DNA of 64,000 nucleotides from an uncultured Nitrososphaeria archaeon (GCA_964655015.1 CAZZKR010000022.1:6583-70582), one strand, 5' to 3'. Counted from the stretch's first letter, positions 27,379 to 62,013 are shown. A program made the numbers and translations. Notes: generated from the letters alone by a model not told the origin.

Positions 27379-29471
27379 GGTCTATGGAGATTAAAAGCAG
27401 TCTTCGCTCATTTTTTAGATCCAGGCCCGTTGTCCTAGAGATTGCAGCCTTGTTGTCCATCTTAGCTATTGCTTTCACAATCAGGATGTTGCCTATTAGA
27501 TGGGGCACCCTCCTGTCAGAGTTTGACCCATGGATGCAGTTCCGCCAGGCCGAATTCATCGTCGAAAGAGGATGGTCAGGCTTCTCCGAATACTTCTCTT
27601 GGGTAGACATGGAGCGCTGGTATCCCTATGGACAAGTGGTGAGTAGGAGCTTTTACCCAGGACTTCCTTTCGCACTAGCATTCATCTATCTTTCCTTATC
27701 ATCGATAGGTATACACGTCAACCTTTTGGAACTGGCTGTCGTCTTTCCTGTTATAATGTCTATGATAGCGATACTTGCAGTTTATTTCTTAGGTAAAGAG
27801 GTTGGTGGGAGGTCAACCGGCCTATTGGCAGCGTTTGCTTTAGCGATAAGCAATGCATACATAGGCAGAACGCATGCGGGCTGGTTCGACGATGAGAGCA
27901 TTTCCATACCTCTTATGTTACTAAGCTTTCTCATGTATGCATACGCAATCAAGAGGGGGAAGAGCTACAAACACGTGGTTGTATGCTCTGTATTATCCGG
28001 TCTATTCCTAGGATATGTTGCTACATGTTGGGGTGCCCATAGGTTCCCGTTCATGTTTATACCTATAATAACCTTGCTGCTTTCTTTCATAGGGCGGTAC
28101 AGAAAGGAGCTTTTGATAGCTTATTCAATAACCTTTGGGTTATCGTCAACGATAGCCACGTCCGTTCCCAAGTTAGGCGGTGTAAGTTATGTAAATGAGC
28201 TGACCATAATGAGTGGACTGGTCGTCCTCGTGTTACTTGTAGTTTTCGAGCTGTCGAACAATCTCAACAGTAAATTCTTGAGAAGTTTCATACCTAGGAT
28301 TACGACAGTAGCTTTATTAGCATCGCTTGGCATCCTAGCCGTTCTTCCGGGCACGAAGTTCCTTTCAACGATACTGCCAGGCATAAGGGGTGAGTTACCG
28401 ATTCTGATATCCGTTGCGGAGAACCAAATGAGCACCTGGGCAACAATATTCACGGATTTGGGATTCTTCTTGATATTCGTCCCAGTTGGGATTTATTACA
28501 TGTTGAAGGAAGGAACTGACGAGGCAATATTCATCTCTACCCTTACTGTCTTGAGCATATACTTCGCAGCATCCATGGTGAGGTTGTCTGTGCTAGCCGC
28601 ACCATTCGTCGCCATAGCTTCCGGGTATGCAATTAGCAGACTCTTCGAATCTCTCGGGAACGTAATAGCGAGGAGGACCGAAAGGAGGAGGGGCGAAAAG
28701 GTTCCAATAGAATACGCGATTGCGACCCCTATACTCGTTGTGTTACTGTTGGCAATCCCGCTAGCACCTTCTTTCCTTATCGGCAGAAGTTTGCCGAGTC
28801 TATCACCGGTAGACCAAGCATACTTCCCTCCTACAGTGATACAGTCTACGCTACCGGTCGCCGCAAATATACCTGATTGGATAAATGCCTTATCATGGAT
28901 GAGAGACAACCTCCCGGACAATGCAGTCGTTGCAGCATGGTGGGACTATGGTTATTGGATTACCGTGATGGGGAACAAAACCACGCTTGCTGATAACTCG
29001 ACCACGAATAGCACACAGATTGGAGTATTGGCCCTAGCATTCATGTCGCCGCCTGAAAAAGCTGCCCAGATACTGAGGCAGCATGGCGTGACACATGTCT
29101 TAATATTTGTAACGCATGAGGTAAGATCGTACGCCGGTACGTACTTTCCAAGGTTGCTTGGTTATGGTGACGAGGGAAAATGGGTCTGGATGCTGAAGAT
29201 AGCGAATCAAGAGGCACAAAAGCTCGGCATAGAACCATTTAACGAAAATGAGTATTATGACGCAACGAAACCGTTAACCGAGGGCGCCACGGAAAAATTC
29301 TGGAACGATACCTTGCTCGGTCAGCTTATACCCTATAAGCCGCGTACAGAGGGTAACATCATCACGCACTATTACGAAGAGCCTAACGTAAAGGGCTTCA
29401 GACTCATTTACTCGTCAAGCCAACCATACACTAGCTACGCATACGTATATATCTACGAGCTCACGGGTTGA
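27375..29471 (+). CDS. aglB: Archaeal oligosaccharyltransferase AglB (STT3 family)
   Basis: 13-TM-like N-terminal half, WWDYGYW motif, about 700 aa. Confidence 0.9.
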   Translation: MRSMEIKSSLRSFFRSRPVVLEIAALLSILAIAFTIRMLPIRWGTLLSEFDPWMQFRQAEFIVERGWSGFSEYFSWVDMERWYPYGQVVSRSFYPGLPFALAFIYLSLSSIGIHVNLLELAVVFPVIMSMIAILAVYFLGKEVGGRSTGLLAAFALAISNAYIGRTHAGWFDDESISIPLMLLSFLMYAYAIKRGKSYKHVVVCSVLSGLFLGYVATCWGAHRFPFMFIPIITLLLSFIGRYRKELLIAYSITFGLSSTIATSVPKLGGVSYVNELTIMSGLVVLVLLVVFELSNNLNSKFLRSFIPRITTVALLASLGILAVLPGTKFLSTILPGIRGELPILISVAENQMSTWATIFTDLGFFLIFVPVGIYYMLKEGTDEAIFISTLTVLSIYFAASMVRLSVLAAPFVAIASGYAISRLFESLGNVIARRTERRRGEKVPIEYAIATPILVVLLLAIPLAPSFLIGRSLPSLSPVDQAYFPPTVIQSTLPVAANIPDWINALSWMRDNLPDNAVVAAWWDYGYWITVMGNKTTLADNSTTNSTQIGVLALAFMSPPEKAAQILRQHGVTHVLIFVTHEVRSYAGTYFPRLLGYGDEGKWVWMLKIANQEAQKLGIEPFNENEYYDATKPLTEGATEKFWNDTLLGQLIPYKPRTEGNIITHYYEEPNVKGFRLIYSSSQPYTSYAYVYIYELTG

Positions 29472-46892: not shown

Positions 46893-48206
46893 TTGCAGAA
46901 TAATCTCCAACCATCTGCTGAAGTATGTGTCAATCGATCGGCGATAAAAACAATATATACTCACTTCGAAAAATCTTTTTTTAAAAGTGAAAAATATAAA
47001 TTAACCTCAGAAATAGGTAAAACATCCTTGGGGGTAAAGGGTACGAAAACTTTAGTTGATGCTAAAACAATTACTGCGATAGACCCCGAATTCCCAAATG
47101 CAATTATAAAGTTGGGAGCGGAGAGGTTTCATAGATGCTTTAATTGTGGCAATTGTACGGCTATCTGCCCGCTGACCCAAGATAAGGCATCTTATCCTAG
47201 GAAGCTTATACGTTACGCCGTTATGGGTTTAGAAGAGAGAGTAACGTCTTCTACTGATCCATGGTTATGCTACTATTGTGGTGAATGTAGCGATTATTGT
47301 CCTAGGGACGCCGACCCTGGAAGTTTTATGATGGCTTTAAGAAGATTGCTCATCCAAAAATACTCGATAGTTTCTAAAGCATTTTTCAATAAAATAGCCG
47401 CTGCGATAACTTGGATAGTTTTAACTATAATAGCTGCTCTAGGTATTTACTTTTTTAGAGGACACTCCCCAAATCTTGAAACTGTTGATTTATCATCTTT
47501 TCTATCAATAGATTTTATACATGATGCCGGACTAGCAGTTGGGGCAGTAGTGGGACTGTTTGCTTTATTGAATCTCATAAGCATGTATCGGAGCATCGCT
47601 AAGGGTATTTCATATTCTTACTCAAAAGTAGAGAGCAGAAATCCTGCGTTGTGGATTAAGAACTTCTTTAAAACCATAATCTACGAAGTCGCTGCACAGT
47701 TAAAATATAGTAAATGTTTAAAGAAAAGTCGATATGTTGCACACTTGGCATTATTCTGGGGCTTCTTAGGTTTATTTGTAGCAACGCTAATAGTCTTCGG
47801 AATAGACTTCTATGGGCTCCAGATATCGAGGGTTGTTCCTTTCGTTATTGGTGTTATATCCGGGGTAGTCATGCTTTACGGCTCTATCTACTTTATTATT
47901 GCAAGATTAAAGAAGAAGGAAACCTACGCAATGTATTCGTATCATACTGATTGGGTCTTTCTAATACTGCTGTTTCTTGCGGGCGTTACTGGATTCTTAC
48001 TGGCAATATTTGTAAAAGTAAATTTGCCCATGGAATCTTACATAACGTATGCAGTGCATTTAATAGTGGTATTTGACTTACTAATTTCTGCCCCATTTAC
48101 TAAATTTGCCCATGCAATTTATAGACCTCTAGCCCTCTGGATTGATAGTACAGTAAGAGAATCCCCGATTATAGGAGGCATAATGGGAGGTGGTAGGGGT
48201 GGCTAA
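46893..48206 (+). CDS. QmoC-like protein: HdrC-like 2x[4Fe-4S] domain fused to a NarI/HdrE-like membrane cytochrome-b-type domain
   Basis: CFNCGNCTAICP and CYYCGECSDYCP, then about 6 hydrophobic helices with conserved His residues, ending FTKFAHAIYRP. The first roughly 45 codons have no ATG. A TTG at 47028 downstream of a TATA-like AAATATAAATT is a plausible true start, giving about 392 aa. Confidence 0.7.
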   Translation: MQNNLQPSAEVCVNRSAIKTIYTHFEKSFFKSEKYKLTSEIGKTSLGVKGTKTLVDAKTITAIDPEFPNAIIKLGAERFHRCFNCGNCTAICPLTQDKASYPRKLIRYAVMGLEERVTSSTDPWLCYYCGECSDYCPRDADPGSFMMALRRLLIQKYSIVSKAFFNKIAAAITWIVLTIIAALGIYFFRGHSPNLETVDLSSFLSIDFIHDAGLAVGAVVGLFALLNLISMYRSIAKGISYSYSKVESRNPALWIKNFFKTIIYEVAAQLKYSKCLKKSRYVAHLALFWGFLGLFVATLIVFGIDFYGLQISRVVPFVIGVISGVVMLYGSIYFIIARLKKKETYAMYSYHTDWVFLILLFLAGVTGFLLAIFVKVNLPMESYITYAVHLIVVFDLLISAPFTKFAHAIYRPLALWIDSTVRESPIIGGIMGGGRGG

Positions 48207-49476
48207 ACCAGTCCTAGTTATTGGTGGCGGTATTGCGGGTATACAAGCATCGCTCGACCTTGCCGATCAAGGTGTTAAGGTCTACCTAGTAGAGAAGCTG
48301 CCTAGTATAGGTGGTAAGATGGCTCGCCTTGACAAGACTTTCCCAACCTTAGACTGTGCCTCATGCATTCTTACACCTAAGATGGTTTCGGTTGCGAGGC
48401 ATCCTAACATAGAACTTCTAACATACTCTGAAGTAGTGGAGGTTAAGGGCTCGGCTGGAGACTTCCATGTAAAAGTGTTGAAGAAGCCAAGGTATGTCGA
48501 TGAAGATAAGTGTATAGGATGTGGGGAATGTATTGCTAAGTGTCCATCCAAAGTTCCGGATGAATTTAACATGGGTATGAGTCAGAGAAAAGCGATATAC
48601 TTCCTATTCCCGCAAGCCGTTCCGCTTAAAGCAACCATAGATAAAGAACATTGCCTCTACTTTACTAAGAACATATGCCGTGTATGTGAAAGGATCTGCC
48701 CAACCAAAGCAGTAAACTTTGAACAGAAACCTGAAACCCTAGAACTTAATGTAGCTTCCATAATAATTGCTACAGGATACGAATTGATGGATCCACATCT
48801 CGCAGCAACATATGGTTATGGAAAATATTCAAACGTATATCTATCGTTAGAGTTTGAAAGGCTTGTATCATCCACTGGACCGACTGGAGGAGAGATCGTG
48901 AGGAGGTCAGATAATAAGCATCCGAAGAGCATAGCTTTCATACAATGCGTATGTTCCAGAGACGTTAAGATAAACCCGAACTGTTCAGCTTTCTGTTGCA
49001 TGGCTTCAGTTAAGCATGCAATCCTAGCAAAAGAACATTTGCCAGAAGTCGACTGCACAATATTCTACATGGATCTTAGAGCATTCGGGAAAGGATACCA
49101 AGAATTCTACAATAGAGCCATGAAAGAGTTTGGTATAAAGTTCATCAGAGCTAAACCCGCAAAGATCGAAGAAGACCCTGAAACCAAGGACTTAATAATA
49201 ACCTACGATGATACATTAACAAGCATTAAGAGAACTATGAGGGTAGATATGGTCGTATTAGCTGTGGGTGTTAAACCCGTTTACCCAGAAGTGTTGCCTT
49301 TAAAAATCGGAGAGGATGGGTACGTATGTTTAAAGGACCCAATCATGGAATCTATAGCATCAACTATAGACGGGATATACGTTGTAGGTGTAGCAGCGGG
49401 CGCAAAGGACATCCCAGACTCTGTTGTACAAGCGGGTTCAGCAGCAGCTAAAGCATCTATATTGGCTGGGGTGTAA
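48190..49476 (+). CDS. QmoA-like short HdrA-family flavoprotein
   Basis: VIGGGIAGIQAS FAD motif, TFPTLDCASCILTPK, inserted CIGCGECIAKCP. It lacks the HdrA N-terminal and C-terminal ferredoxin domains. The likely start is GTG 48202. Confidence 0.8.
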   Translation: MVGVAKPVLVIGGGIAGIQASLDLADQGVKVYLVEKLPSIGGKMARLDKTFPTLDCASCILTPKMVSVARHPNIELLTYSEVVEVKGSAGDFHVKVLKKPRYVDEDKCIGCGECIAKCPSKVPDEFNMGMSQRKAIYFLFPQAVPLKATIDKEHCLYFTKNICRVCERICPTKAVNFEQKPETLELNVASIIIATGYELMDPHLAATYGYGKYSNVYLSLEFERLVSSTGPTGGEIVRRSDNKHPKSIAFIQCVCSRDVKINPNCSAFCCMASVKHAILAKEHLPEVDCTIFYMDLRAFGKGYQEFYNRAMKEFGIKFIRAKPAKIEEDPETKDLIITYDDTLTSIKRTMRVDMVVLAVGVKPVYPEVLPLKIGEDGYVCLKDPIMESIASTIDGIYVVGVAAGAKDIPDSVVQAGSAAAKASILAGV

Positions 49477-49479
49477 AAC

Positions 49480-51492
49480 ATGAGTGAAGAACCTAGGATA
49501 GGAGTGTACATATGCCATTGTGGATTAAACATTGCAGGTACGGTCAATATAAAAGAAGTAGTTGAATACGCAAAGAACCTTCCAAACGTCGTAGAGGCGA
49601 GAGATTATGTCTTTATGTGTTCTGCTCCAGGTCAGGACATCATTAAAGAAGGCATAAAGAAGCATAATCTGAACAGAGTTGTAGTAGCAGCTTGCTCTCC
49701 AACTATGCATGAACCTACTTTTAGAAATGCGCTGGCTGAAGCTGGCTTGAACCCGTACCTGCTAGAAATGGCGAACATCAGAGAACAATGTTCTTGGGTT
49801 CACTCGGACAAGGAGGCGGCAACCGCTAAAGCTAAGCTATTGGTGAGAATGGCTGTGGCTAAAGCATCATTACTTGAACCACTTAAAGATATAAAATTCA
49901 AAGTCAATAAGAACGTATTGATTATAGGAGGAGGGGTTGCGGGACTCTCTGCTGCTAGGGATCTAGCCGCCAAAGGTTTCAAAGTCTACCTTATTGAAAG
50001 GAAGCCTGTAATTGGTGGGAACACTGCTAGACTTGGGAGGCTCGTACATACAAAATTAAAAGGAATAGATGTTGTGAAGGAATTATCAAAGGACGTCATA
50101 AACAACCCAAACATCCAAATATATGTAAACACTGAGCTAACAAACGTCGACGGCTCTGTTGGAGATTTTAAGATTAAGCTGATAAAGAATCCGAGGTACG
50201 TCAATGAAAACTGCAACCTGTGTGGTGAATGTGTTAAGGTATGTCCAGTCGAGGTTCCAAATGAATACGAGTTCGGCTTAACAAAAAGGAAAGCGATCTA
50301 TCTACCATATAAAGGAGCCTATCCACCACTCTACGTAATAGACTCAGAGAACTGTACAAGATGTCTTGAATGCGTTAAAGTATGTCCAACGCATGCTATA
50401 AACTTAGATCAGAAACCTGAGGAAATAGAATTAAGAGTTGGAGCAATAATAGTTGCCGCAGGACACGAACCATACGAACCGCCAGTCGGAGAATTCGGGT
50501 ACGGTTTATCGAATAGAATAATAACGCTATTCCAGCTTGAAAGGCTGCTTGATACAGAAGGTCCAACAAACGGTGAGTTAAAGATAAATGGTATACAACC
50601 CAAAAACATCGTATTCATAATGTGTGTGGGATCGCTTAATACAACTCCAAACGCATACCCGTACTGCTCCAGAATGTGCTGTGCATCGACGATAAAGAAT
50701 GCATTAATAATCAAAGAGAAATATCCAGAAGCAAACATATACATCCTACACAAAGACATAAGAACGTACAATAGGCTGGACGAGCAGCTTTACATTAAAG
50801 CTGGAGAAGGTCTGATCAGGTTTGCAAGATACAGAGAAGCTCCAAACGTCGTCCGCCTCTTTGAGATAATGGGTAGTGAAAAATTGCCTACCGAACTCCT
50901 TAAAAAATTCCCCCTCCTCGTCAATCCTGATGGGAGCATCAATGTAAGATTCTTCGAAGAAACAATTCAAGAAGAAATATCTATCCCCGCCGACCTAGTA
51001 GTGTTATCAGTTGGTATGAAACCTCCAAAAGATATTGATAAAGTTAGGACGCTAACAAAGGTAGGATGCGGTCCAGAAGGATTCCTTAAGGAAGCACACT
51101 TAAAGCTTAGGCCGGTTGAAGCAACTACTGATGGGGTATATCTTGCGGGGACTGTGACTGGACCGAAAAACATAGCCGAGTCAATAGAATCTGGAAGCGC
51201 TGCAGCCTCTAAAGCATTAGGGCTTCTTACAAAAGAAGAAGTTAAAGTAGAACCGCTAATTGCTGTAGTAAATGAAGAAATATGCAGTGGCTGCGCAATA
51301 TGCATAGGAATGTGTCCATACAACGCGATAAGATTAAAGGTTCAAGAAAACGTTAGGGTTGCAGAAGTGGACCCGGCACTATGTAAAGGGTGTGGAACAT
51401 GCGTAGCTTCATGTCCAACGGGTGCAATGCAACAGTATAGCTTCAAAGACAATCAATTGAAGAACCAACTCGTAGCAGCTTTTATCGGGTGA
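49480..51492 (+). CDS. hdrA: Full-length HdrA-family (QmoB-like) FAD/FeS protein
   Basis: N-terminal IGVYICHCGLNIAG...VVVAACSP domain, IIGGGVAGLSAA, CNLCGECVKVCP, C-terminal CSGCAICIGMCP and CKGCGTCVASCP. Confidence 0.85.
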   Translation: MSEEPRIGVYICHCGLNIAGTVNIKEVVEYAKNLPNVVEARDYVFMCSAPGQDIIKEGIKKHNLNRVVVAACSPTMHEPTFRNALAEAGLNPYLLEMANIREQCSWVHSDKEAATAKAKLLVRMAVAKASLLEPLKDIKFKVNKNVLIIGGGVAGLSAARDLAAKGFKVYLIERKPVIGGNTARLGRLVHTKLKGIDVVKELSKDVINNPNIQIYVNTELTNVDGSVGDFKIKLIKNPRYVNENCNLCGECVKVCPVEVPNEYEFGLTKRKAIYLPYKGAYPPLYVIDSENCTRCLECVKVCPTHAINLDQKPEEIELRVGAIIVAAGHEPYEPPVGEFGYGLSNRIITLFQLERLLDTEGPTNGELKINGIQPKNIVFIMCVGSLNTTPNAYPYCSRMCCASTIKNALIIKEKYPEANIYILHKDIRTYNRLDEQLYIKAGEGLIRFARYREAPNVVRLFEIMGSEKLPTELLKKFPLLVNPDGSINVRFFEETIQEEISIPADLVVLSVGMKPPKDIDKVRTLTKVGCGPEGFLKEAHLKLRPVEATTDGVYLAGTVTGPKNIAESIESGSAAASKALGLLTKEEVKVEPLIAVVNEEICSGCAICIGMCPYNAIRLKVQENVRVAEVDPALCKGCGTCVASCPTGAMQQYSFKDNQLKNQLVAAFIG

Positions 51493-51550
51493 GTTACATG
51501 AAGATTAAAAACACATATATTGTAATAATAGGTTGGTGTTGTGGACATAG

Positions 51551-51988
51551 GTGATTCAGATGAGCCAAAACTTTGAACCGAAAATAATCGCTTTTTTGTG
51601 TAACTGGTGTTCTTATGCTGCTCTCGACCTCGCAGGTACAAGCCGAATGAAGTATCCTCCAAACTTTTTAGTGATTAGAGTTATGTGCTCGGGCAGAGTT
51701 GATCCACAATTCATTCTTGAAGCTTTCAGAAGAGGTGCAGACGGAGTGCTTGTTGCGGGATGCCATCCGGGAGACTGCCACTATATTGAAGGTAACATTA
51801 AAACGTTGAGGAGGATGACGCTTCTAAAGAGGATGCTTGAAGAATTTGGGATAGAGAAGGAGAGGTTTAGGCTTGAATGGATCTCCGCAGCAGAAGCGGA
51901 TAAATTTGTTAAAGTGGCTAACGAAATGTTTGAGAAGATAAAGTCTCTAGGTCCGTTGAAACTAAAAGAGGTGAATACTCATGAATAA
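51551..51988 (+). CDS. mvhD: MvhD-like hydrogenase delta subunit
   Basis: IIAFLCNWCSYAALDLAG...VMCSGRV...AGCHPGDCHY. The probable start is ATG 51560, behind a GGTGAT Shine-Dalgarno sequence. Confidence 0.85.
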   Translation: MIQMSQNFEPKIIAFLCNWCSYAALDLAGTSRMKYPPNFLVIRVMCSGRVDPQFILEAFRRGADGVLVAGCHPGDCHYIEGNIKTLRRMTLLKRMLEEFGIEKERFRLEWISAAEADKFVKVANEMFEKIKSLGPLKLKEVNTHE

Positions 51989-52961
51989 ACCTAAGATAGC
52001 TCTATACTGGTGTGCAAGTTGTGGAGGATGCGAAGAAGCACAAGTAGACCTTGCAGAAAAGATCCTAGACCTTGTAAACCTTGTAGACATAGTATTCTGG
52101 CCAGTCGCCATGGATTACAAGATCGAAGACGTTGAGAAGCTTCCAGATGGATCGATTACTGCCAGCTTCATAAACGGTGGAATCAGGCTTAGCGAACACG
52201 AATACGTGGTAAAACTGCTAAGAAAGAAATCCAAGTTAGTCGTAGCCTATGGAGCATGCTCAGCGTGGGGCGGAGTCCCAGGCCTTGCAAACCTCTACAG
52301 TAGAGAAGAAATACTGAAATACGTATATCATGAAGCACCAACAGTAGAAAATCCTCAGAAGATACAACCACAATTAAAAATTAAAGCAGAGGAGGGGACA
52401 ACGCTTGAGCTACCTGAAGTCCTCCCGCGCCTCCTCCCACTAGACCTTGTAGTAGACGTGGATTATTATATTCCAGGATGTCCCCCAACACCAGAAGTAA
52501 CATGGAAAGCAATAGAAACTCTGCTGTCCGGAAATCTTCCAGCTAAAGGCTCCGTGCTTGGAGCATTAGATAAATCGCTCTGCTACGAGTGTCCATTAAA
52601 CGAGACCAAGCCTGAAAAAGTACTAATCAAAGATATCAAGAGACCGCATGAAGTAATCGCCGACCCATCCAAATGTTTATTAACACAAGGACTAATGTGC
52701 CTTGGACCAGTAACCCGTGGAGGATGTAGTGCACTCTGCATAAAAGCAGCCATGCCATGCACAGGATGTTTCGGCCCACTCAACGAAGTAATGGACTATG
52801 GTGGAAAAGCTGCATCGTACTTCGCAAGTATAGTGGATTATAGCGATGAAGAAGAAATTAAGAAAGTGTTGGGCAAGATTCTGGATCCGATGGGAATATT
52901 TTATAGATACTCCCTGCCAGCCTCAAGGCTTAGAGGGAAGATAACGGTAACGAGGAGGTGA
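51981..52961 (+). CDS. mvhG: [NiFe]-hydrogenase small subunit, MvhG-like
   Basis: YWCASCGGCEEA proximal-cluster motif, GACS.WGG, PGCPP, and distal Cys clusters. Confidence 0.85.
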   Translation: MNKPKIALYWCASCGGCEEAQVDLAEKILDLVNLVDIVFWPVAMDYKIEDVEKLPDGSITASFINGGIRLSEHEYVVKLLRKKSKLVVAYGACSAWGGVPGLANLYSREEILKYVYHEAPTVENPQKIQPQLKIKAEEGTTLELPEVLPRLLPLDLVVDVDYYIPGCPPTPEVTWKAIETLLSGNLPAKGSVLGALDKSLCYECPLNETKPEKVLIKDIKRPHEVIADPSKCLLTQGLMCLGPVTRGGCSALCIKAAMPCTGCFGPLNEVMDYGGKAASYFASIVDYSDEEEIKKVLGKILDPMGIFYRYSLPASRLRGKITVTRR

Positions 52962-54436
52962 GCAAGATGAAAGAAGTGGTAATAAACCCCATCACGAGGC
53001 TTGAAGGGCACGGCAAGATCGTGGTAATACTCGACGATGCTGGGAACTGTGTTAAAGCATACCTCCAAGTACCTGAACTCAGAGGTTTCGAAACATTCGC
53101 CGTAGGAAGACATGCGGAAGACATGCCGCAGATAACTTCTAGGATATGCGGCGTATGCCCGACAGCCCACCACATGGCCTCAACAAAAACTCTAGACGAC
53201 CTCTACAAGGTAGAGCCGCCGGAACCTGCAAAGAAGATTAGAGAAATGTTCTACAACATATTCATGCTTGAAGACCATGCACTCCACTTCTACATCCTAG
53301 CAGGACCAGACTTCATAGTAGGACCGAAGGCATCCAAAGAGGAGAGAAACGTCGTAGGAGTAATCAAGAAGGTTGGAACGGAAGTCGGTTTAAGAGTAAT
53401 CCAGACTAGGAAGAAGCTTAGAAAATTAATGGAGATAATCGGCGGAAAAACAATACATCCAGTCCTCGGCCTACCAGGAGGGATATCAAAACCGCTATCT
53501 CAAGAAGCGGTTGAAACAGCAAGGAAAGTATCGGAAGAAGCGGTACAATTCGCAGAGTTCACATACAAGATCTTCAAAGATGTAGTCTTAGCAAACAAAG
53601 AATACGTAGACCTCATAACAAGCGAAGCGTACACGCATAGGACATACTACATGGGTTTAGTGGATGAAAAGAACAGAGTAAACTTCTACGATGGAAAGAT
53701 CAGAGTAGTCTCACCAAGAGGGATAGAACACGCAAAATTCGACATCCATCAATACCTGGATTACATAGCAGAACACGTAGAACCATGGACGTACATAAAA
53801 TTCCCGTACCTCAAGAAGATAGGATGGAAAGGATTCATAGACGGAGAAGATAGCGGAGTGATGAGTGTAGCACCGCTAGCAAGACTCAACGCAGCAGATG
53901 GAATGGCAACACCGAAAGCACAGGAAGCATATGAAGAAATGTACGAAACACTGGGAGGAAAACCAATCCACCACACGCTAGCAAACCACTGGGCAAGAGT
54001 AATAGAGATAATCTATGCGGCAGAAAGATTCAGAGAATTAGCAAATGACCCAGACATAGAAAGCAAAGAAGTAAGAAACCTGCCAACAGCAACACCAGAA
54101 GAAGGTATAGGAGTAGTAGAAGCACCAAGAGGGACACTAATACATCACTACCAAACAGACCAAAACGGAGTAATCAAGAAAGCAAACCTGCTAGTAGCAA
54201 CACAGCACAACGCGGCGAGAATAGCGCTCTCGGTAGACAAAGCGGCAAGAAGTCTCGTCAAAGCGGGACAGATAGACCAAGGAATACTAAACATGGTAGA
54301 GATGGCGTTCAGAGCATATGACCCATGTCACGCCTGCGGGACCCATTCGCTACCAGGTGGTATTTCAGTCAAGTTCTATCTATACAGCATGAATGGTCAA
54401 CTTTTGAGAATCGTCAATTCCGAGGATTTGGTTTAA
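52958..54436 (+). CDS. mvhA: [NiFe]-hydrogenase large subunit, MvhA-like
   Basis: RLEGHGK, RICGVCPTAHH (L1) and DPCHACGTH (L5), followed by a C-terminal extension of about 29 aa. Confidence 0.9.
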   Translation: MSKMKEVVINPITRLEGHGKIVVILDDAGNCVKAYLQVPELRGFETFAVGRHAEDMPQITSRICGVCPTAHHMASTKTLDDLYKVEPPEPAKKIREMFYNIFMLEDHALHFYILAGPDFIVGPKASKEERNVVGVIKKVGTEVGLRVIQTRKKLRKLMEIIGGKTIHPVLGLPGGISKPLSQEAVETARKVSEEAVQFAEFTYKIFKDVVLANKEYVDLITSEAYTHRTYYMGLVDEKNRVNFYDGKIRVVSPRGIEHAKFDIHQYLDYIAEHVEPWTYIKFPYLKKIGWKGFIDGEDSGVMSVAPLARLNAADGMATPKAQEAYEEMYETLGGKPIHHTLANHWARVIEIIYAAERFRELANDPDIESKEVRNLPTATPEEGIGVVEAPRGTLIHHYQTDQNGVIKKANLLVATQHNAARIALSVDKAARSLVKAGQIDQGILNMVEMAFRAYDPCHACGTHSLPGGISVKFYLYSMNGQLLRIVNSEDLV

Positions 54437-54698
54437 TTTATTACATCAAATATTTATCGGATAACGGATTGGCGAGGTTTCTGTTTTATGTATTGTTGGA
54501 GTTAATTTAAATTCTTTCAAAGACATTTTAGAAGAGTAGGCCGACAATTGTTGTTATAGCTGCATATAAGTAATAGCAGGAAAAATTTAGCATCCACGAA
54601 ATTCTCTAGGGGGCCATAAAGATGCATTTAATGATTCGCAGTTAGTCTTATTTTTTAAAATTTAAGATTTTAATGTAATAGAACAGGCTACAAGATCC

Positions 54699-55991
54699 TT
54701 AGGCAGGTAAACCAACTTTAAGCAAAAAGTCTATGAGCCACTGAGGCTTAACTGGAAACCAGACGATAAACCATGCTACTTGTACTGCAGTCATAGAGAA
54801 TAGTATAATCTTTGAGAATTTGTCTTCTCCGAGTATGTATGGTAACCCTATAGCTATTATCGGTACAGTTGAGTAGAAGTAGAACGGGTATACCCATCTA
54901 TGGAGTATGTATGCAATAGGGAAGAAGACTAGATAGGTTAGAGAGATCCATGAAAGTATTAACATCTCAGTGTCTGGAAACGCTTTACTCCTCAATATGA
55001 GGATGGATGAATAGATTGAGAACGCAAATATAACCCAGGTCGTCCACCATAAAGGTGTCTGCATGCCGTAATATGCTATTGGATGATATTCTTTACCATC
55101 AATAGTTACCTTTACGACAAAGTATGATTCACGGGAGAAAGGCATGATCGGATTAGCCCAAGTAATGGGCATGTGGACTACATCCCCCTCTTTAAATGTT
55201 AAGGTAGAATGGTAGTTTAGTATATAGTCGAGATGCTCAAAAGGTGTAGAATAAGCATTTAAAGAATAATCGTAGATAGCTAACCCAGCTAACAGGACTA
55301 ATAGAGAAATTATTAACGTCTTCTCAACGATCTTTAACATCTCTTTAATCGAATTTATGAATCTCTTCTGCGAATAAGACGTTTTCAAGAAATAGTATAG
55401 TAGTAGAGCAGCAAATATGAAGAAACTCGAGATCTTGCATAGTAATGCAAAACCAATCGCGACGCCTGAATAGAAATATCTCCTCTTAAGGAAAAATATT
55501 GCCGATAATAGGCTGAACATCATAGCAGGGGCATCTAGGATTGCCATCGAGCTGATGTTAAATGAAGTAACATCACAAGCAAAGAGTATTGCTGAACATA
55601 GAGCTAAAACATTGTTCTTTAATACTATGTGTGCAAGTTTACCCAGTAAGTATACCGTTATTGCTCCCGATAACGCTATGAAAACCCTCCACCCTATTGG
55701 GTTATCTCCAAACAATAGTATCCCTAATATGATTAATGCTTTAGAGAGGGGTGGGTGCTCATTATTCACCGCCATTCCCATAAGCATCTTGCGAGCAGCC
55801 GGGACATAGTGAGCTTCATCAAAGATTAATGCGCAATCTGTTGATAAAGGTGGATTAGTACAGTTGGAAGGTGGGAGTTTAGGCCAAGGTTCATTTATTA
55901 TCAATAATTTCAATACAAGGATGATAATAGACAAGATTGCTAACTGGACGTCTAGCTTACTTAGATGTCTTCTTAAGAAGGCTATGCTCAT
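54699..55991 (-). CDS. GT-C fold membrane glycosyltransferase-like protein (GT39/PMT_2-like)
   Basis: About 11 TM helices. The first loop carries FDEAHYVPAARKM, resembling the DE motif of PMT/ArnT-type lipid-carrier-dependent glycosyltransferases. Confidence 0.6.
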   Translation of the reverse strand: MSIAFLRRHLSKLDVQLAILSIIILVLKLLIINEPWPKLPPSNCTNPPLSTDCALIFDEAHYVPAARKMLMGMAVNNEHPPLSKALIILGILLFGDNPIGWRVFIALSGAITVYLLGKLAHIVLKNNVLALCSAILFACDVTSFNISSMAILDAPAMMFSLLSAIFFLKRRYFYSGVAIGFALLCKISSFFIFAALLLYYFLKTSYSQKRFINSIKEMLKIVEKTLIISLLVLLAGLAIYDYSLNAYSTPFEHLDYILNYHSTLTFKEGDVVHMPITWANPIMPFSRESYFVVKVTIDGKEYHPIAYYGMQTPLWWTTWVIFAFSIYSSILILRSKAFPDTEMLILSWISLTYLVFFPIAYILHRWVYPFYFYSTVPIIAIGLPYILGEDKFSKIILFSMTAVQVAWFIVWFPVKPQWLIDFLLKVGLPA

Positions 55992-57115
55992 AAAATCTTC
56001 ACCAAGCTTGCTAAAGGTTTAATCAATTCTTTAAAGATCATCTTTTTCCCGGAAGCTCTAAGATACGTCTCAGCCAACATGTATAATAATGCCACAGCTC
56101 TTATTAATGCAAGATTTTGAGGTAATGTCCCAGGCATTAGCGGATCCTTCTCCATAAACCATGTAAGAATTATTCCTACATTAGCACCTTCAAGAATATA
56201 GAATGTTGGTTGAATTCTACCAATTATTGCTAAGAAAGGAAGAATAAATATAACCATCTGTGGAGTGAAAACATAGTTTGTTAAAAGGAAGACTGATAGT
56301 AACATAAAGGATCTCTCATAGAGGTTGCCGACATTGCTTAGGTAGATTTTCAGTAAACCATAAGCCATGAGAAGAGCGCTGAATAGCTTAGCTGTATCCC
56401 ATGAACCTCTTGAAGGAAATAGGTAAACGAACCAAGCATTCTCAAGCCCCCAATTAAGATGATAAAGGTATGTACCTTTAAAGAAGCTTGGATTAAGTAT
56501 CTGTAATCCTATATTAACAATCGCAATAGGCATAAAAACATAAAATAGATAATTTAACCTACTCTTCCAATCCTTTAAGCTAACAAGCAGCATCGGTAGA
56601 AGTATAATATTGACTAGTTTTACGAGGGTTGTGGCTGAGAATAGCAGTGCTGAAATCTTATACTTGCCCTTCTCAAAAAACATTAAAGATAAGATTAAGA
56701 GTGCAGCGAAGACTACATCGAAGTTATAATTTAGATAGACGATCATTGAAGGTGAAAATATAAGGAAGACAAAGATGTAGATTGGTGGGACATTCTTTTC
56801 ACGCATTATCTTGAAGACTGTTAAAACAAGGAGAATATAAAATAAGTAGAGTATGGTGGAGAAAGCATTATAGTATGGGATCATTTCTCCTCTACCAATA
56901 ACTGATGAGACATAGGTTATCAATCCTGCCAATGGAGGATACTCAAAACTTTCTTGTATGTATGGTATCCTAACATCCATTACTAGAGGTCTATACCAGA
57001 AAGAGATAATGTCTGAATAGATATTCCCTCCAATCTTTGGATGGTGAAGCAAATACGATGTAATAAAGGATAATGTAGATGCGATGATGATTATCTTCCT
57101 CAACACTTTTTTCAT
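55988..57115 (-). CDS. Polytopic membrane protein, DUF2029/GT87-like putative glycosyltransferase
   Basis: FEYPPLAGL loop motif after TM1; about 10 TM; 4-nt overlap with the downstream GT39-like gene. Confidence 0.45.
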   Translation of the reverse strand: MKKVLRKIIIIASTLSFITSYLLHHPKIGGNIYSDIISFWYRPLVMDVRIPYIQESFEYPPLAGLITYVSSVIGRGEMIPYYNAFSTILYLFYILLVLTVFKIMREKNVPPIYIFVFLIFSPSMIVYLNYNFDVVFAALLILSLMFFEKGKYKISALLFSATTLVKLVNIILLPMLLVSLKDWKSRLNYLFYVFMPIAIVNIGLQILNPSFFKGTYLYHLNWGLENAWFVYLFPSRGSWDTAKLFSALLMAYGLLKIYLSNVGNLYERSFMLLSVFLLTNYVFTPQMVIFILPFLAIIGRIQPTFYILEGANVGIILTWFMEKDPLMPGTLPQNLALIRAVALLYMLAETYLRASGKKMIFKELIKPLASLVKIL

Positions 57116-57157
57116 AAATTTCTCAACCTCTTACCCTAAATACTAAAACTTTGGATG

Positions 57158-57172
57158 ATTTTAAATTGTATA
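57158..57172 (+). repeat. Copy 1 of the exact 15-nt direct repeat ATTTTAAATTGTATA (TATA-box-like)
   Basis: Read directly from the sequence; the second copy is at 57316-57330. Confidence 0.6.
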
Positions 57173-57315
57173 AACATAGCTAATCGCGCAGTAATGGTTT
57201 ATAAGACGAATTTAAACATTCAAGCAAGAAATGAATGTGACGACATTGACTTTAAGTTTACGTAACCAGCGGAACCTCAAAGCTTTAATGAATATTGTTG
57301 GCACTTTAAGTGTTC

Positions 57316-57330
57316 ATTTTAAATTGTATA
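57316..57330 (+). repeat. Copy 2 of the exact 15-nt direct repeat ATTTTAAATTGTATA
   Basis: Read directly from the sequence, 158 bp after copy 1. It is followed by a degenerate segment of about 43 nt that resembles 57268-57310. Confidence 0.6.
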
Positions 57331-57495
57331 TACGACCGGAACCCCCAGAGCATAACTAATGATTGGAACTTTGAAATTTTTAATAATAAAGAGACCAAAA
57401 TAGCTATTTTTAAATTAACTTTTCAACCTTCTCAAAAAACGCTACGTTTATATATAAGATAAATAAAACAAAATCTAAGTATGCGGTGTTTATAA

Positions 57496-58509
57496 ATGAA
57501 AATAAATCCTAAGGCTGTGTTCTTCTTAGTAGTGTTTCTTGGTTTCTTAACTATAGGTGCGGCTCAGCAAATAATAATAACAACAACTACGACTACGCTC
57601 ATAACAATACCTGGAACCACTTATGTTACAACTCTTCCAGGTGGGGAAATTACAGCAACGATAGTCATACCAAAGTATACATTGATAGCCGTAGAAAAAC
57701 GTCCAGACCAAACGTGTTCAATAGTATTAAAACCCATAAAAACTGAGGGAGTAATAACCATCCCCGGCACTACTGTTACTATTCCTGGAACAACTGTGCA
57801 AACTGTATTTACTGAGCCTACGATCAAGTATTCTATAACTTATGAAGAAGATGGGGTAACAACTACTACGGGATATACGTACATAGAGCTTGTTACCACA
57901 ATAGCTGGACAAACATTCTCTATACCAATACCTCTATATGCAGAGATCATAGAAAGCTGCCAGACAATACAAGTCGTACAGGAAGTAACGATTATCATGG
58001 GAAGTGTACCTGCCACATTCTACTATGCATACCCAGAGATGACATATTCATTCGAAGGAGCAACCTTTACTATAGAAGAGATGACAGAAGAATTGCCAAC
58101 AACTATAACTACTACGACTATTACACCTGGAACAACATATACTGAGTCAACAGTTTTTCCTGGAACGACTATGGCCACCACAATTACTCTGCCATCTACT
58201 ACCGTTACAGTAACCGAGCCTGAAAAGACAGTAACGTCTACGATAACATATGTGACAACCATTACTAGACCGACTACGGAGACTACGCCTACAACACCTA
58301 CACCAACCACAACCACTCAAACTACTCCGACCACTGTAACTACACCGACACCCACCCCAACTCTAACAGAGACTGAGACGACTAGACCAGGAATGGAATT
58401 TGCAGGGTTACCTCTTGACATACTTGCAGGAATAATAGCAACCGTAGCAATCATAGCAATAGTCGTAGCTGCTCTGCTGTTTAGGAGAGGTGCAGGCAGG
58501 ATTAGATAA
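57496..58509 (+). CDS. Thr-rich secreted surface protein with PGTT repeats and a C-terminal TM anchor (PGF-CTERM-like layout)
   Basis: Signal-like N-terminus (VFFLVVFLGFLTIGAA), repeated I(T)IPGTT(Y/V) units, a TTETTPTTPTPTTTTQTTPTTVTTPTPTPT linker, then RPGMEFAGL plus a hydrophobic helix plus RRGAGRIR. Confidence 0.7.
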   Translation: MKINPKAVFFLVVFLGFLTIGAAQQIIITTTTTTLITIPGTTYVTTLPGGEITATIVIPKYTLIAVEKRPDQTCSIVLKPIKTEGVITIPGTTVTIPGTTVQTVFTEPTIKYSITYEEDGVTTTTGYTYIELVTTIAGQTFSIPIPLYAEIIESCQTIQVVQEVTIIMGSVPATFYYAYPEMTYSFEGATFTIEEMTEELPTTITTTTITPGTTYTESTVFPGTTMATTITLPSTTVTVTEPEKTVTSTITYVTTITRPTTETTPTTPTPTTTTQTTPTTVTTPTPTPTLTETETTRPGMEFAGLPLDILAGIIATVAIIAIVVAALLFRRGAGRIR

Positions 58510-58532
58510 CCTCCTTATGTCGCAACTATTAT

Positions 58533-58560
58533 AACCTATTCTCTTTTTATGAGATAGGTT
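58533..58560. terminator. Hairpin between convergent genes (10 bp stem with one bulge, T-rich loop)
   Basis: AACCTAT(T)CTC-TTTTTAT-GAGATAGGTT, read directly. It lies between the ends of 57496..58509(+) and 58607..59563(-). Confidence 0.35.
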
Positions 58561-58606
58561 TCGAGTATGATAAAAAGTGTTTAAAACGCTCACTTTTTCA
58601 CGACTA

Positions 58607-59563
58607 CTAGGAAAACCTCCTCACGATAAACTTTTCATCAGCAAAAGTAACCACGCTTATCTCGTGCTTATCTATAAGCTTTCGTATGAGACCTTCTGGG
58701 TCATCTACAACTTTTTCAAGTACCCTTACCGCATGGCTTAGCCTCAACGGGTGTACCGATACTAGGTTTAGGAGCCAAACCTCTGGATTCCCATAAACAG
58801 AAAGTTCGGGAGGTTCTGGCAAGTTGAGCAGTTCCACATGGTCTTCTCCGAGCTTGTCGGCAAAGAGCGTGTATGCCTCCACGAGCCTTTCCGGCGGCGG
58901 AGGCTTAGCGTACACTTCTGCAGGAGGTCTTACTGGGATTGCTATGTAAGCTCTCCATGGTTCAAGGTCCCTAATGAAGTCTACGATTAACTTTAGCTCT
59001 TCTGGGCTAGTGTTAAACTCATTTACGAGCATTGTCTCTGTGACCAGCTTCCCTTTAAACATACCAGCAAACTCTTTAATGCCCTTAAGTATGTCTGCGA
59101 GCTTTAAGCCCGGGTGCGGTCTGTTGACCTTCTTCCATGTATCTTCAGTTAGAGCATCAATTTTCACGGAGACGAGGTCTGCATCGAGGAGGTCTTTTCT
59201 AACATCCTCCCGAAACAATAGCGAGGCATTGGTAAGTACGGCTATGGGTTTTGATACCGACTTCTTAATCTCGGCTATCTCTTGGCCTATGCGTATGTCT
59301 AAAAGTGGCTCCCCATCGGGGACGAACGTCACGTAGTCTACTTTTTCGTCTACATTGTTAATAAACTCGGAAACCTCGGATACCACCTCTTCAGGACTGT
59401 AGAATGCCCTCCTTTCGATGGAAAGGTTTCTCGTCCTGCCGAGCTGGCAATATATGCAGGAGTACGTGCAGGTCTTGTACGGTATATTGTTAATACCTAA
59501 GCTTCTCCCTAATCTCCTAGACATTACGGGACCGAAGACATGCTTGAATGTAGGCATGCTCAC
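58607..59563 (-). CDS. Radical SAM protein (COG0731-like)
   Basis: CTYSCIYCQLG CxxxCxxC motif near the N-terminus; 318 aa. Confidence 0.8.
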   Translation of the reverse strand: MSMPTFKHVFGPVMSRRLGRSLGINNIPYKTCTYSCIYCQLGRTRNLSIERRAFYSPEEVVSEVSEFINNVDEKVDYVTFVPDGEPLLDIRIGQEIAEIKKSVSKPIAVLTNASLLFREDVRKDLLDADLVSVKIDALTEDTWKKVNRPHPGLKLADILKGIKEFAGMFKGKLVTETMLVNEFNTSPEELKLIVDFIRDLEPWRAYIAIPVRPPAEVYAKPPPPERLVEAYTLFADKLGEDHVELLNLPEPPELSVYGNPEVWLLNLVSVHPLRLSHAVRVLEKVVDDPEGLIRKLIDKHEISVVTFADEKFIVRRFS

Positions 59564-59611
59564 AGATATGTTCCTCCACTCGACATATAGTAAAAAAGGT
59601 GTATTATACGT

Positions 59612-60112
<501 letters not shown>

Positions 60113-60529
60113 TTAAGCGAATTTGTCCCCTTCCTTTAGCCAACGATAAATAGTTTTTAAAGGCACGCCCAACTCCTCTGACATTTGCTTAGCGTTATAA
60201 CCCATGCGCCTTAACTCTTGCATCTGCCTCTTCTTCAACCTTCTTTCGGCCTTATTGAATTTGGCTTTATTCTCGAAAATTATGCGGTCCTCTTTGCCGA
60301 AGAGTGAAAGGGCCAACGTGAAGGCTTTAATGTAGTTATATTCCCTGTTAATGTAACCTATTAACTTGATACGATAATCTTCGGCAATATATTCCCTTAA
60401 CTGATTTAGCACCTCCTCTACCATATCGAAGCTTATGGAAGGCCCGAACTCGACCTCGACCGTCTTACTCTCGGACTTAACCTCAATCGAGTAACCTTTG
60501 TTCATTTCCGGTCGCCTCTTTTTTATCAC
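60113..60529 (-). CDS. Hypothetical protein with a C-terminal helix-turn-helix (resolvase/Hin-type HTH-like)
   Basis: C-terminus [32 protein letters not shown]. The N-terminal 90 aa match no family I recognise. Confidence 0.5.
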
Positions 60530-60871
60530 AGTGTCCGTATTTTCAGACTTATAAACTTTCCCATTTTGAGATTTCTTTATAATGCGAAAAGTTTATATAC
60601 TGTCGTTCTCATATTGTAAAAATGGAGAAATGAGAAACGGGGGTGGTCCCTATGGTGGTAGAAAAGGTATTCAAGCTAAAAATGATTAAGTACAAAATAA
60701 CTGATCGCGGACCTCCGATAATGATCTAAAACATCCCCTTTTTATTTTTTCTTTTTTGTTCGCTTTTTTATTAAAATGGGCGCTAATAATTCACGAACTC
60801 TAACTCTCTTGCAAAAACCAAGCAACACGGGTCTCATAATTGTTCGAATAATGTTTTTAAAAGCAAAACAG

Positions 60872-60945
60872 AGCCTCGGGCGGGATTTGAACCCGCGACC
60901 GCCGGCTTACCAAGCCGGCGCCCCACCCGGCTAGGCTACCGAGGC
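60872..60945 (-). tRNA. tRNA-Thr(GGU), no intron
   Basis: Reverse-complement fold: GCCUCGG-UA-GCCU..GGGC-G-CCGGC-UU GGU AA-GCCGG-CGGUC-GCGGG-UUCAAAU-CCCGC-CCGAGGC-U. Confidence 0.85.
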
Positions 60946-61035
60946 TGTTATAATTGGTTAAACCGAAAATTATTAGCTTTACCGTTCGGATCGCAAAAAT
61001 AATTTATAAACGTGTTAGAACAAAAGCTCAAGCGA

Positions 61036-61164
61036 GGGGGCGTGGCCCAGAGGAGCAAAAGTCTCCGGGGAACAAGGTCTACGGCGCCGGGCTCCAGATC
61101 TCTGCGAAGCAGATCAGGGTGTGCAGAAACCCGGAGACCGCCGGTTCGAATCCGGCCGCCCCCA
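61036..61164 (+). tRNA. tRNA-Trp(CCA) with two introns (about 23 nt in the D-arm region and 31 nt at 37/38)
   Basis: Acceptor GGGGGCG/CGCCCCC, T arm GCCGG-TTCGAAT-CCGGC, anticodon stem CCGGG/CCCGG with loop CU-CCA-G[31 nt]A. There are 42 nt between position 9 and the anticodon stem where about 19 are expected. The exact D-arm splice junctions were not resolved. Confidence 0.7.
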
Positions 61165-61209
61165 TCTTTAATTGCAATTCTAGGAGGCCAGATACCGACG
61201 TTCCAAGGT

Positions 61210-62013
61210 CTATCGGAATTGTAGCACCAGCCTTACAGCGACAAGCAGGAGCGTAAGACCCAGCAGCCTCTTGATTTTCACGTCGCCCACGAGACCCGAT
61301 ACACGCGCGCCCACTTGAGCACCCAACACACCGCCTAAGCCCAAGAGTATGGCGTACTCGAATGAGACATTGTTCAGCATAGAATGAGTAACGGAGCCGA
61401 AGAGTGTTGTGAACACTAGTATAAAATGCGATGTGGCCGTCGCAACGTGGACTGGTATGCCGAGTATGTGTATCATGATGGGCACATGCAGCACGCCTCC
61501 GCCGATGCCGAAGATGCTGGATGCAAAACCTGCGACAAAGCTCGTCACAAGCCCTAATGGTATGTTAATTGAGTATGTGTAGACTTTGCCACTAGAGTCG
61601 ATAATCTTCCTTCCATATCCTCCAGTCTTAACGGTGTCGAATTGACCCTTAGGCTTAATTAGAAGGTAAAGCGATGCCCAAACCAAAAGGGCCGCAAAGA
61701 TAAGCCTAAACATAAAGTGCTCAATATATCCCACAAGGTACGCACCTATGATCGCGCCCGGAATCGTGGGAACGGTAAGTAGGAGTCCAAGTTTAACGTC
61801 GACCCTCTTAAGTCTCAGGTACGAAATGCTCCCAGATAAAACGTTTAGGAAGACGAAAAACAAGCTCGTCCCAGTCGCCAGTCTGGGCTCGAAACCATAT
61901 AGCAAAATGAGGGCAGGGACAAGATACGCCCCACCGCCTATTCCTATCAGCGTCCCCAGCCCGCCTATTCCGAAACCAAGAGCCACAAGTATCAGACACT
62001 CGTACCATAGCAT
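61210..62013 (-). CDS. TauE/SafE (DUF81) family anion exporter
   Basis: 7-8 TM helices; duplicated GIGGG(A/V) motifs typical of TauE/SafE. Confidence 0.8.
   Translation of the reverse strand: MLWYECLILVALGFGIGGLGTLIGIGGGAYLVPALILLYGFEPRLATGTSLFFVFLNVLSGSISYLRLKRVDVKLGLLLTVPTIPGAIIGAYLVGYIEHFMFRLIFAALLVWASLYLLIKPKGQFDTVKTGGYGRKIIDSSGKVYTYSINIPLGLVTSFVAGFASSIFGIGGGVLHVPIMIHILGIPVHVATATSHFILVFTTLFGSVTHSMLNNVSFEYAILLGLGGVLGAQVGARVSGLVGDVKIKRLLGLTLLLVAVRLVLQFR

Follow-up and report, generated by a model that had tools for sequence, protein, structure and literature searches.

Organisation of the locus

The DNA analysed here, referred to below as the window, is a stretch of 64,000 nucleotides from an uncultured Nitrososphaeria archaeon (GCA_964655015.1, CAZZKR010000022.1:6583-70582), and the genes under study lie between positions 54699 and 58509. 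Two overlapping genes on the minus strand encode glycosyltransferases of the GT-C class, as judged from their open reading frames (ORFs), Pfam matches and predicted folds: a compact GT87/DUF2029-like protein of 375 aa (55988-57115), whose gene comes first in the operon, and a GT39-like protein of 430 aa related to the protein O-mannosyltransferases (PMTs; 54699-55991). Across an AT-rich intergenic region of 380 bp (57116-57495), a divergent gene on the plus strand (57496-58509) encodes a threonine-rich surface protein of 337 aa whose composition and hydropathy indicate a type-I membrane anchor. The coordinates, strands and lengths assigned to the three ORFs in the initial annotation were all exact. 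Because one enzyme of the conserved operon has a complete PMT active site, the pair is proposed here as a fair, testable candidate for the archaeal O-glycosylation enzymes. The gene for AglB is encoded separately at about 27.4 kb, as had been stated (27375-29471; an STT3 match of 146 bits together with the AglB core).

The GT39-like protein shares 86% identity with its counterpart in Ca. Geocrenenecus arthurdayi and, on the basis of this value and of the names of its homologues, the window is assigned to a Ca. Geocrenenecus-like hot-spring genome of the Caldarchaeales ("Aigarchaeota", Nitrososphaerota). The window sequence was found again in about ten metagenome runs from hot springs or sediments, and a look for RNA runs indexed under it gave none. 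Contigs of independent hot-spring metagenomes bridge positions 56987-58124 and 56987-59161, linking the GT87 gene to the threonine-rich gene across the intergenic region. Since independent contigs span the junction, the adjacency of the two genes is genuine and not an artefact of assembly.

The GT87-like and GT39-like genes form a conserved operon

Direct reading of the sequence around the junction of the two genes (...TTATGAGC...) showed that the TGA stop codon of the upstream gene lies within an ATGA that carries the start codon of the downstream gene (55988-55991, minus strand). This four-nucleotide arrangement is typical of translational coupling. The operon that had been proposed from the overlap was borne out by a comparison of 72 non-redundant GT39 loci, the window included (80 loci in all), in 31 of which a GT87-like gene adjoins the GT39 gene. 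The GT87-like gene is nearly always directly upstream and on the same strand; in one lineage it is convergent and in two it lies downstream. One of the 31 pairs is bacterial (Anaeromyxobacter). In related loci, the two ORFs were called either as overlapping or with a gap of less than 150 bp; the choice of the most upstream start codon accounts in part for the larger overlaps. The two genes are thus a conserved operon well beyond the genome of the window. Wolframiiraptor gerlachensis (locus L020) has the same pair, and GT39 homologues also occur in Calditenuis (L057). No aglB or agl-type gene was linked to the pair, either in the window or in those relatives with annotated flanks.

In the closest relatives the gene order is ETF-beta, ETF-alpha, ELP3-like radical SAM, GT87, GT39, MFS, rpoB, rpoA. 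The ELP3-like gene (about 532 aa) stands directly before the pair in most relatives, where it was called as overlapping or abutting (L005, 1399-8638; also L006-L008, L010, L012, L014, L018 and L020), and this linkage is kept across genera. The ETF beta and alpha genes precede it in close relatives, and the MFS and rpoB/rpoA genes follow the pair in the closest Geocrenenecus-like loci. A functional tie between the ELP3-like gene and the pair was considered and rejected; because no rationale for it was found and the gene is missing from the arrangement in the window, the linkage was treated as operon hitch-hiking.

The GT39-like protein retains the residues of the PMT active site

Two Pfam models of the PMT N-terminal region matched the GT39-like protein, PMT_2 (PF13231, 43.3 bits for a cutoff of 26.1) and PMT (PF02366, 31.4 bits for a cutoff of 22.7), and both were also matched by 21 of 22 family members. 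Among the NCBIfam models, Pmt (E 8e-11) ranked above ArnT (E 1.6e-3), both far under their equivalog cutoffs. Profile alignment with hhalign placed residues 54-418 along a bacterial-type protein that contains PMT and PMT_4TMC (P0115; probability 99.6%, E 1e-24, about 25% identity), and within this full-length alignment residues 263-418 fall on the PMT_4TMC region. An AlphaFold model (AF2) obtained from 22 homologues (predicted local distance difference test, pLDDT, 87; predicted TM-score, pTM, 0.90) found its best PDB folds among the fungal PMTs, namely Saccharomyces cerevisiae Pmt1 (TM-score, TMq, 0.69), C. thermophilum Pmt4 (0.68) and S. cerevisiae Pmt4 (0.66), with about 12-16% identity in the fold alignments to these solved structures. 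Lower scores were obtained for ArnT (0.51), AglB/PglB (about 0.5) and ALG9/12 (about 0.52).

The definition of the active site was taken from a mutagenesis study of the Mycobacterium tuberculosis enzyme (MtPMT) published in 2025, in which D74, D176, R441 and Y444 proved essential; these residues correspond to D77, D189, R649 and F652 of yeast Pmt1 (ScPmt1) (PMC12331936). All four are present in the GT39-like protein, as D58, D153, R365 and Y368. The first of them belongs to FDEAHY (aa 57-62; 55806-55823, minus strand), the loop already singled out as PMT/GT39-like, which aligns with the DE motif F76-D77-E78-V-H-F of Pmt1. The second lies in ILDAP (55527-55541, minus strand), and R365-x-x-Y368 is found in HRWVYPFYFY (54873-54902, minus strand). 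HMMER alignments equate D58 with D77, R102 with R138 and D153 with D189; they also place R365/Y368 on R649/F652, in a segment that is sub-threshold when taken alone, and hhalign pairs the same motif with the R-x-x-F of P0115. In the alignment of 22 family sequences, the invariant positions are F57-D58-E59, N76, E78-H79-P80-P81 and K84 (the last six within NNEHPPLSK, aa 76-84), W101-R102, D140, D153 and R365, and position 368 is aromatic throughout. The N-terminus contains three Lys/Arg and no acidic residues before the first transmembrane (TM) segment and the DE loop. This charge distribution, together with the superposition of the model on PMTs, predicts that the N-terminus is inside and the DE loop outside, which agrees with the outward-facing motif initially expected. 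Given the four PMT residues and the profile alignment to a PMT/PMT_4TMC protein, the GT39-like protein is assigned as a PMT homologue of the prokaryote type, compact and without MIR domains, with all active-site residues in place and a predicted activity.

The GT87-like partner

The match of the GT87-like protein to the GT87/DUF2029 family (PF09594) is borderline for the window sequence itself (26.4 bits for a cutoff of 25), and 25 of 26 family members matched the same model (best E 1.2e-11). Sequence and profile searches against the PDB returned nothing meaningful, only spurious chemokine matches, so that fold comparison was the only informative approach for this protein. Its AF2 model (pLDDT 95.3) resembled glycosylphosphatidylinositol (GPI) mannosyltransferase I (TMq 0.71), PIG-U (0.57-0.68), ALG6 (0.63) and PimE (9dm5; 0.58). 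One of these, PIG-U, is a non-catalytic GPI-binding subunit, and the fold does not discriminate between GT87 and GT50, as GPI mannosyltransferase I, a GT50 enzyme, fits better than PimE. Within the family, N131/D133 and two motifs of the first outer loop, Y33-S34-D35 and F57-E58-Y59-P60-P61, are invariant, so that this loop keeps the acidic residues D35 and E58. The PF09594 matches uphold the GT87/DUF2029-like assignment, and both membrane proteins classify as GT-C, lipid-carrier-dependent glycosyltransferases of the families first named for them.

The divergent threonine-rich protein

The 337-aa protein contains 94 Thr residues (28%) and five PGTT motifs (aa 39, 90, 97, 211 and 222). Hydropathy analysis outlined a hydrophobic N-terminal signal (aa 1 to about 25) and a C-terminal TM segment (aa ~309-327; 58420-58476) followed by the basic tail RRGAGRIR, with a Thr/Pro stalk in between (aa ~258-297; 58267-58386). 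Composition, motifs and hydropathy thus agree with the layout first described, of a signal-like N-terminus, PGTT repeats, a Thr/Pro linker and a TM segment with a basic tail. The ectodomain is beta-rich and carries two invariant Cys and the PGTT motifs. The protein belongs to a family of 74 homologues from Caldarchaeales (304-355 aa) that lack a Pfam match and have in common a signal peptide, a mature N-terminus of the form QQ-V-I-TTTTTT, the two invariant Cys, the PGTT motifs, the Thr/Pro stalk, a single C-terminal TM segment and the basic tail. The two Cys suggest an extracellular beta domain stabilised by a disulfide. Despite 20-28% Thr, 20 of 22 aligned members have no N-X-S/T sequon at all, and Asn is depleted (0-5 per ~330 aa, as against 3.3% in window ORFs of at least 200 aa). 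Because sequons are almost absent, any glycosylation of the PGTT protein would have to be O-linked.

The C-terminal tail had been likened to PGF-CTERM-type archaeosortase signals. This proposal was rejected: TIGR04126 (PGF-CTERM) scored 10.8 bits for a cutoff of 24.5 (E 0.3), and PGMEF is not kept in the homologues, where it is replaced by PSVEA, PTIQP, TPMAF and others. Nor did any of the scanned multi-TM ORFs of the window match an archaeosortase or exosortase family. The C-terminus is best described, from its sequence, as a plain membrane anchor.

A further proposal, that the gene pair and its divergent neighbour form an enzyme pair with a dedicated substrate, was contradicted by the genomic context of the PGTT family. 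Orthologues with 72%, 66% and 57% identity are found at three loci with no glycosyltransferase within 6 kb, beside genes for TrmO, a HAD hydrolase, a metallophosphatase and DNA repair. Neither a hidden Markov model (HMM) of the PGTT family nor phmmer detected a family member within 10 kb at any of the 71 further non-redundant GT39 loci, so that co-occurrence of the PGTT protein with GT39 does not extend beyond the window. A marginal profile match in locus L026 (6934-7287, E 5e-4) was dismissed as a low-complexity ORF of 117 aa. In the closest relatives the gene upstream of GT87-GT39 is ELP3 and not a threonine-rich gene. The right flank of the window (radical SAM, TauE, MTS methyltransferase, Asn/Asp-tRNA synthetase) occurs otherwise only in Ca. 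Terraquivivens tengchongensis, where GT87 is convergent with GT39 and there is no PGTT protein. With orthologues located elsewhere and no PGTT protein near other GT39 loci, the position of the PGTT gene beside the operon is a rearrangement seen in the window species only and not a functional module. The neighbour is nonetheless a plausible substrate, one of many, because it is exported, lacks N-sequons and is 28% Thr.

Threonine-rich proteins at other GT39 loci

Threonine-rich stalk proteins are found near GT39 homologues more often than at a distance from them, with eight within 3 kb and three at 3-10 kb, an enrichment of about 5-fold by density (p ~0.01-0.02). They belong to several unrelated families: a solute-binding protein (SBP_bac_5) in a Bathyarchaeon, PLD-like membrane proteins in Calditenuaceae and proteins with pilin-like N-termini in several lineages. 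In Calditenuaceae and related metagenome-assembled genomes, a GT39 paralogue is preceded at a distance of 0.4-1.7 kb by the gene for a membrane-anchored, PLD-like (PLDc_2) protein with a Thr-rich linker (L057, 7761-9002; L059, 7468-8208; L072, 8645-9385), so that synteny between GT39 and a protein with a Thr linker is conserved in a second lineage. Proteins with pilin-like N-termini (resembling class III signal peptides) and very Thr-rich segments cluster beside GT39 and also GT87 genes (L003/L004, 2478-5833; L067, 2699-8414; L069, 2257-3714). One of them, a 551-aa protein in L004, has the same C-terminal order of Thr stalk, TM segment and basic tail as the window protein but is not homologous to it. 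Upstream of GT87-GT39 in Ca. Terraquivivens tikiterensis (L009, 4600-8300) are small unannotated ORFs and a TM-anchored C-terminal remnant of 153 aa with a Thr stalk, which suggests a site of rearrangement. As only this remnant is left among such ORFs, the locus was counted as weak evidence.

A candidate O-glycosylation pathway and its alternatives

The reading that we prefer, at a probability of roughly 0.4, is a general protein O-hexosylation or O-mannosylation of threonine-rich stalks, initiated by the PMT homologue and elongated by the GT87-like enzyme. The wider proposition, that the long-sought machinery of protein O-glycosylation in archaea is the GT87-GT39 operon conserved in Caldarchaeales and related Nitrososphaerota, with the PMT homologue starting and the GT87-like enzyme extending the glycan, is advanced tentatively and with less confidence. 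In the scheme that we infer for donor, acceptor and order of action, the operon would encode two translationally coupled GT-C enzymes that depend on polyprenol-phosphate sugars and have their active sites outside the cytoplasmic membrane. The GT39-like enzyme would transfer a hexose from dolichol-phosphate-hexose to Ser/Thr residues of exported proteins as they emerge, with D58 acting as the base while D153 and R365/Y368 would hold the donor phosphate and the acceptor. Its most obvious acceptors would be the Thr/Pro-rich stalks of membrane-anchored surface proteins. The GT87-like enzyme would then add one or more further hexoses from the same type of lipid donor, as proposed for PimE after Pmt.

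Two bacterial systems provide precedents. In M. tuberculosis, O-mannosylation is reported to be begun by Pmt (GT39) and extended by glycosyltransferases that include PimE (GT87) (PMC12331936). These are the two families brought together in the archaeal operon, a parallel that favours O-glycosylation. In C. bescii, a GT39 enzyme is required for the glycosylation of secreted enzymes, among them CelA, with Thr/Pro-rich linkers, and its gene lies near celA (PMC6151902).

Several observations weigh against this interpretation. The NCBIfam Pmt equivalog (NF058602) scored 41.5 bits for a cutoff of 800 and covered only aa 55-164 of the GT39-like protein, and direct Pfam searches for PMT_4TMC (PF16192) found no match in the window protein at E<=1 or in 22 relatives at E<=0.01. 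The solved structures nearest to the GT87-like protein (GPI mannosyltransferase I, PimE and ALG6) all act on lipid-linked glycans. At the level of the genome, the enrichment of Thr-rich neighbours comes down to about six independent events, PGTT proteins are missing from the other GT39 loci, and the conserved housekeeping context of ETF, ELP3, MFS and rpoB says nothing on the acceptor. From published work, AglS of Haloferax volcanii, the one characterised PMT-related enzyme of archaea considered here, mannosylates an N-linked glycan and not Ser/Thr, and prokaryotic proteins with PMT and DUF2029 domains are the nearest detectable relatives of the ALG enzymes of the endoplasmic reticulum (ER) lumen (PMC4973528).

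The last two points speak in particular for a different role, in which the pair would finish N-glycans outside the cell, transferring sugars from dolichol-phosphate-mannose or dolichol-phosphate-glucose to a flipped lipid-linked glycan, in the manner of ALG3/9/12 and ALG6/8/10, or to a protein-bound N-glycan, in the manner of Haloferax AglS. This role would also fit the presence of AglB in the genome, the ALG12, ALG9 and ALG6 structures returned by the fold searches (TMq 0.5-0.63), the match of one GT87-family member to the Pfam model ALG3 and a housekeeping operon context that suits a core envelope function. Against it, the best folds for the GT39-like protein are PMTs and not ALGs, the PMT-specific R-x-x-Y/F and EL2 Asp are kept, and the pair is unlinked to aglB or agl-type genes. 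On balance, we regard the completion of N-glycans as somewhat less probable than protein O-glycosylation, but as a serious rival to it.

A role in the synthesis of a membrane glycolipid or lipoglycan, with no modification of proteins, seems to us still less probable. The product in that case could be a mannosylated archaetidylinositol, a GPI-like lipid or a lipomannan-like polymer (compare PimE, MptA/B and PIG-M). The best structural match of the GT87-like protein, to GPI mannosyltransferase I, and that to PimE point in this direction, as do precomputed Pfam annotations that place MptA_B_family on many homologues and a weak NCBIfam match to a 'cell surface glycopolymer formation protein' family. 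A further link is PF02366 (InterPro IPR003342), which is shared by ArnT, an enzyme that acts on lipid A. However, the GT39-like protein is nearer to PMT than to ArnT in both the NCBIfam and the fold comparison (TMq 0.68 and 0.51, respectively), it carries the DE and R-x-x-Y motifs, and no genes for lipid-headgroup biosynthesis were noted among the annotated neighbours.

The least probable explanation is a dedicated module of three genes, with the pair glycosylating the PGTT protein before an archaeosortase processes it. This explanation draws on the divergent arrangement across 380 bp, on its recovery from several independent metagenomes and on the proximity of the C. bescii GT39 gene to a substrate gene (PMC6151902), and is largely refuted by synteny, given the PGTT orthologues elsewhere, the lack of PGTT members at any other GT39 locus and the ancestral operon context without this gene, together with the sub-threshold, non-conserved PGF-CTERM motif and the lack of an archaeosortase among the scanned membrane proteins of the window. 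What stands of the O-glycosylation module initially put forward is therefore the two GT-C families, the operon, the outward DE loop and the separate AglB, whereas the dedicated substrate and the PGF-CTERM signal do not. Since the family assignments of the two enzymes do not point away from protein glycosylation, the idea survives in a weaker form, in which the substrates would be general and not dedicated.

Relation to known systems

It has been known for decades that archaeal surface proteins carry O-glycans. Even so, the corresponding pathway and transferase were still described as "elusive" in papers of 2021 and 2024, in line with the initial annotation (PMC8241124, PMC11607397), and one review stated that archaea are without Pmts (PMC8147084). 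Archaeal proteins with PMT and DUF2029 domains had been noted previously (PMC4973528); the names GT39 and GT87 are already attached to the present proteins in databases, and the families are known ones. What is new here is the conserved GT87-GT39 operon, the retention of the PMT catalytic residues and, probably, of a region equivalent to 4TMC in an archaeal family, and the parallel with Pmt and PimE.

Compared with the bacterial PMTs of CAZy family GT39 (MtPMT/Rv1002c, C. glutamicum Cg_1014, S. coelicolor Pmt and C. bescii Cbes_1864), the GT39-like protein has in common the GT-C fold, the DE motif of outer loop 1, the Asp of EL2, the R-x-x-Y/F of the last outer loop and the lack of MIR domains; its C-terminal four-TM region is probably homologous, as judged at profile level. 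It would be expected to use the same kind of polyprenol-phosphate-hexose donor, and Thr/Pro-rich acceptors exist in the organism of the window. It differs in being shorter (430 aa compared with about 520-590 aa), in having a short, poorly predicted beta element in outer loop 4 where MtPMT has a WW-like domain, and in its archaeal host. With PimE (GT87) and GPI mannosyltransferase I (PIG-M/Gpi14, GT50), the GT87-like protein shares its small size for a GT-C enzyme (about 370-400 aa), an acidic residue in outer loop 1 and, by the TM-scores given above, its fold. No solved structure resembles it detectably in sequence, and its PF09594 match is barely over the threshold. The mycobacterial pmt and pimE genes are not known to be adjacent, whereas the two genes overlap in the window.

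Among archaeal systems, H. volcanii AglS is comparable by its description as a PMT-related enzyme that uses dolichol-phosphate-mannose on the outer face of the membrane, and differs, also by description, in that its acceptor is an N-linked glycan already bound to the protein, to which it adds the final mannose. The stalk of haloarchaeal S-layer glycoproteins is likewise a Thr-rich segment of an exported protein placed directly before the C-terminal membrane anchor. There, however, the PGF-CTERM signal is processed by ArtA and the glycans are Glc-Gal disaccharides, whereas in the small window protein (337 aa), a member of a family specific to Caldarchaeales, the anchor is a plain TM segment.

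The GT39 family of thermophilic Nitrososphaerota, with its PMT active site and GT87-like partner, offers concrete, clonable candidates. If the proposal is true, the pair would be an archaeal counterpart of mycobacterial Pmt and PimE and a prokaryotic relative of the GT-C enzymes of the eukaryotic ER lumen; it would also bear on the idea that the latter derive from prokaryotic enzymes of the PMT and DUF2029 type (PMC4973528). Because cultivated relatives carry the genes (the pair in W. gerlachensis and the GT39 homologues in Calditenuis), the O-glycosylation hypothesis is directly testable.

Further features of the window

The divergent intergenic region contains a TATA-like element, GTTTATATATAAG (57447-57459), about 40 bp upstream of the ATG of the threonine-rich gene, which by its sequence and position may serve as a promoter element. 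A repeat search also revealed an 18-nt direct repeat, ATTTTAAATTGTATA(A/T)AC, with two copies in this region (57158-57175 and 57316-57333) and no other in the window. In a strain variant present in other metagenomes, the second copy is interrupted by a 10+2-nt insertion. An Rfam scan of positions 54000-61500 found no structured RNA in the intergenic region, and two tRNAs further downstream. The second of these (61036-61164, plus strand; 44.3 bits, 129 nt) was missed by ARAGORN and is probably an intron-containing archaeal tRNA; a 100-aa ORF that overlaps it (60954-61256) is likely spurious. Two other ORFs (55555-55809 and 58023-58316) were discarded as antisense mirrors of real genes, with Val/Gly-rich translations opposite Thr codons.

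Directly adjoining the operon, positions 46893-54436 (plus strand) hold a heterodisulfide-reductase-like/hydrogenase-like block with Fe-S/FAD proteins and a large [NiFe]-hydrogenase-like subunit, of which 46893-48206 and 48190-49476 were scanned with Pfam and the remainder was judged by sequence; no relation to glycosylation was seen in this block. At the other end of the window, positions 5686-6531 (minus strand) encode a polytopic integral membrane protein of the DUF92 (TMEM19) family (225 bits).

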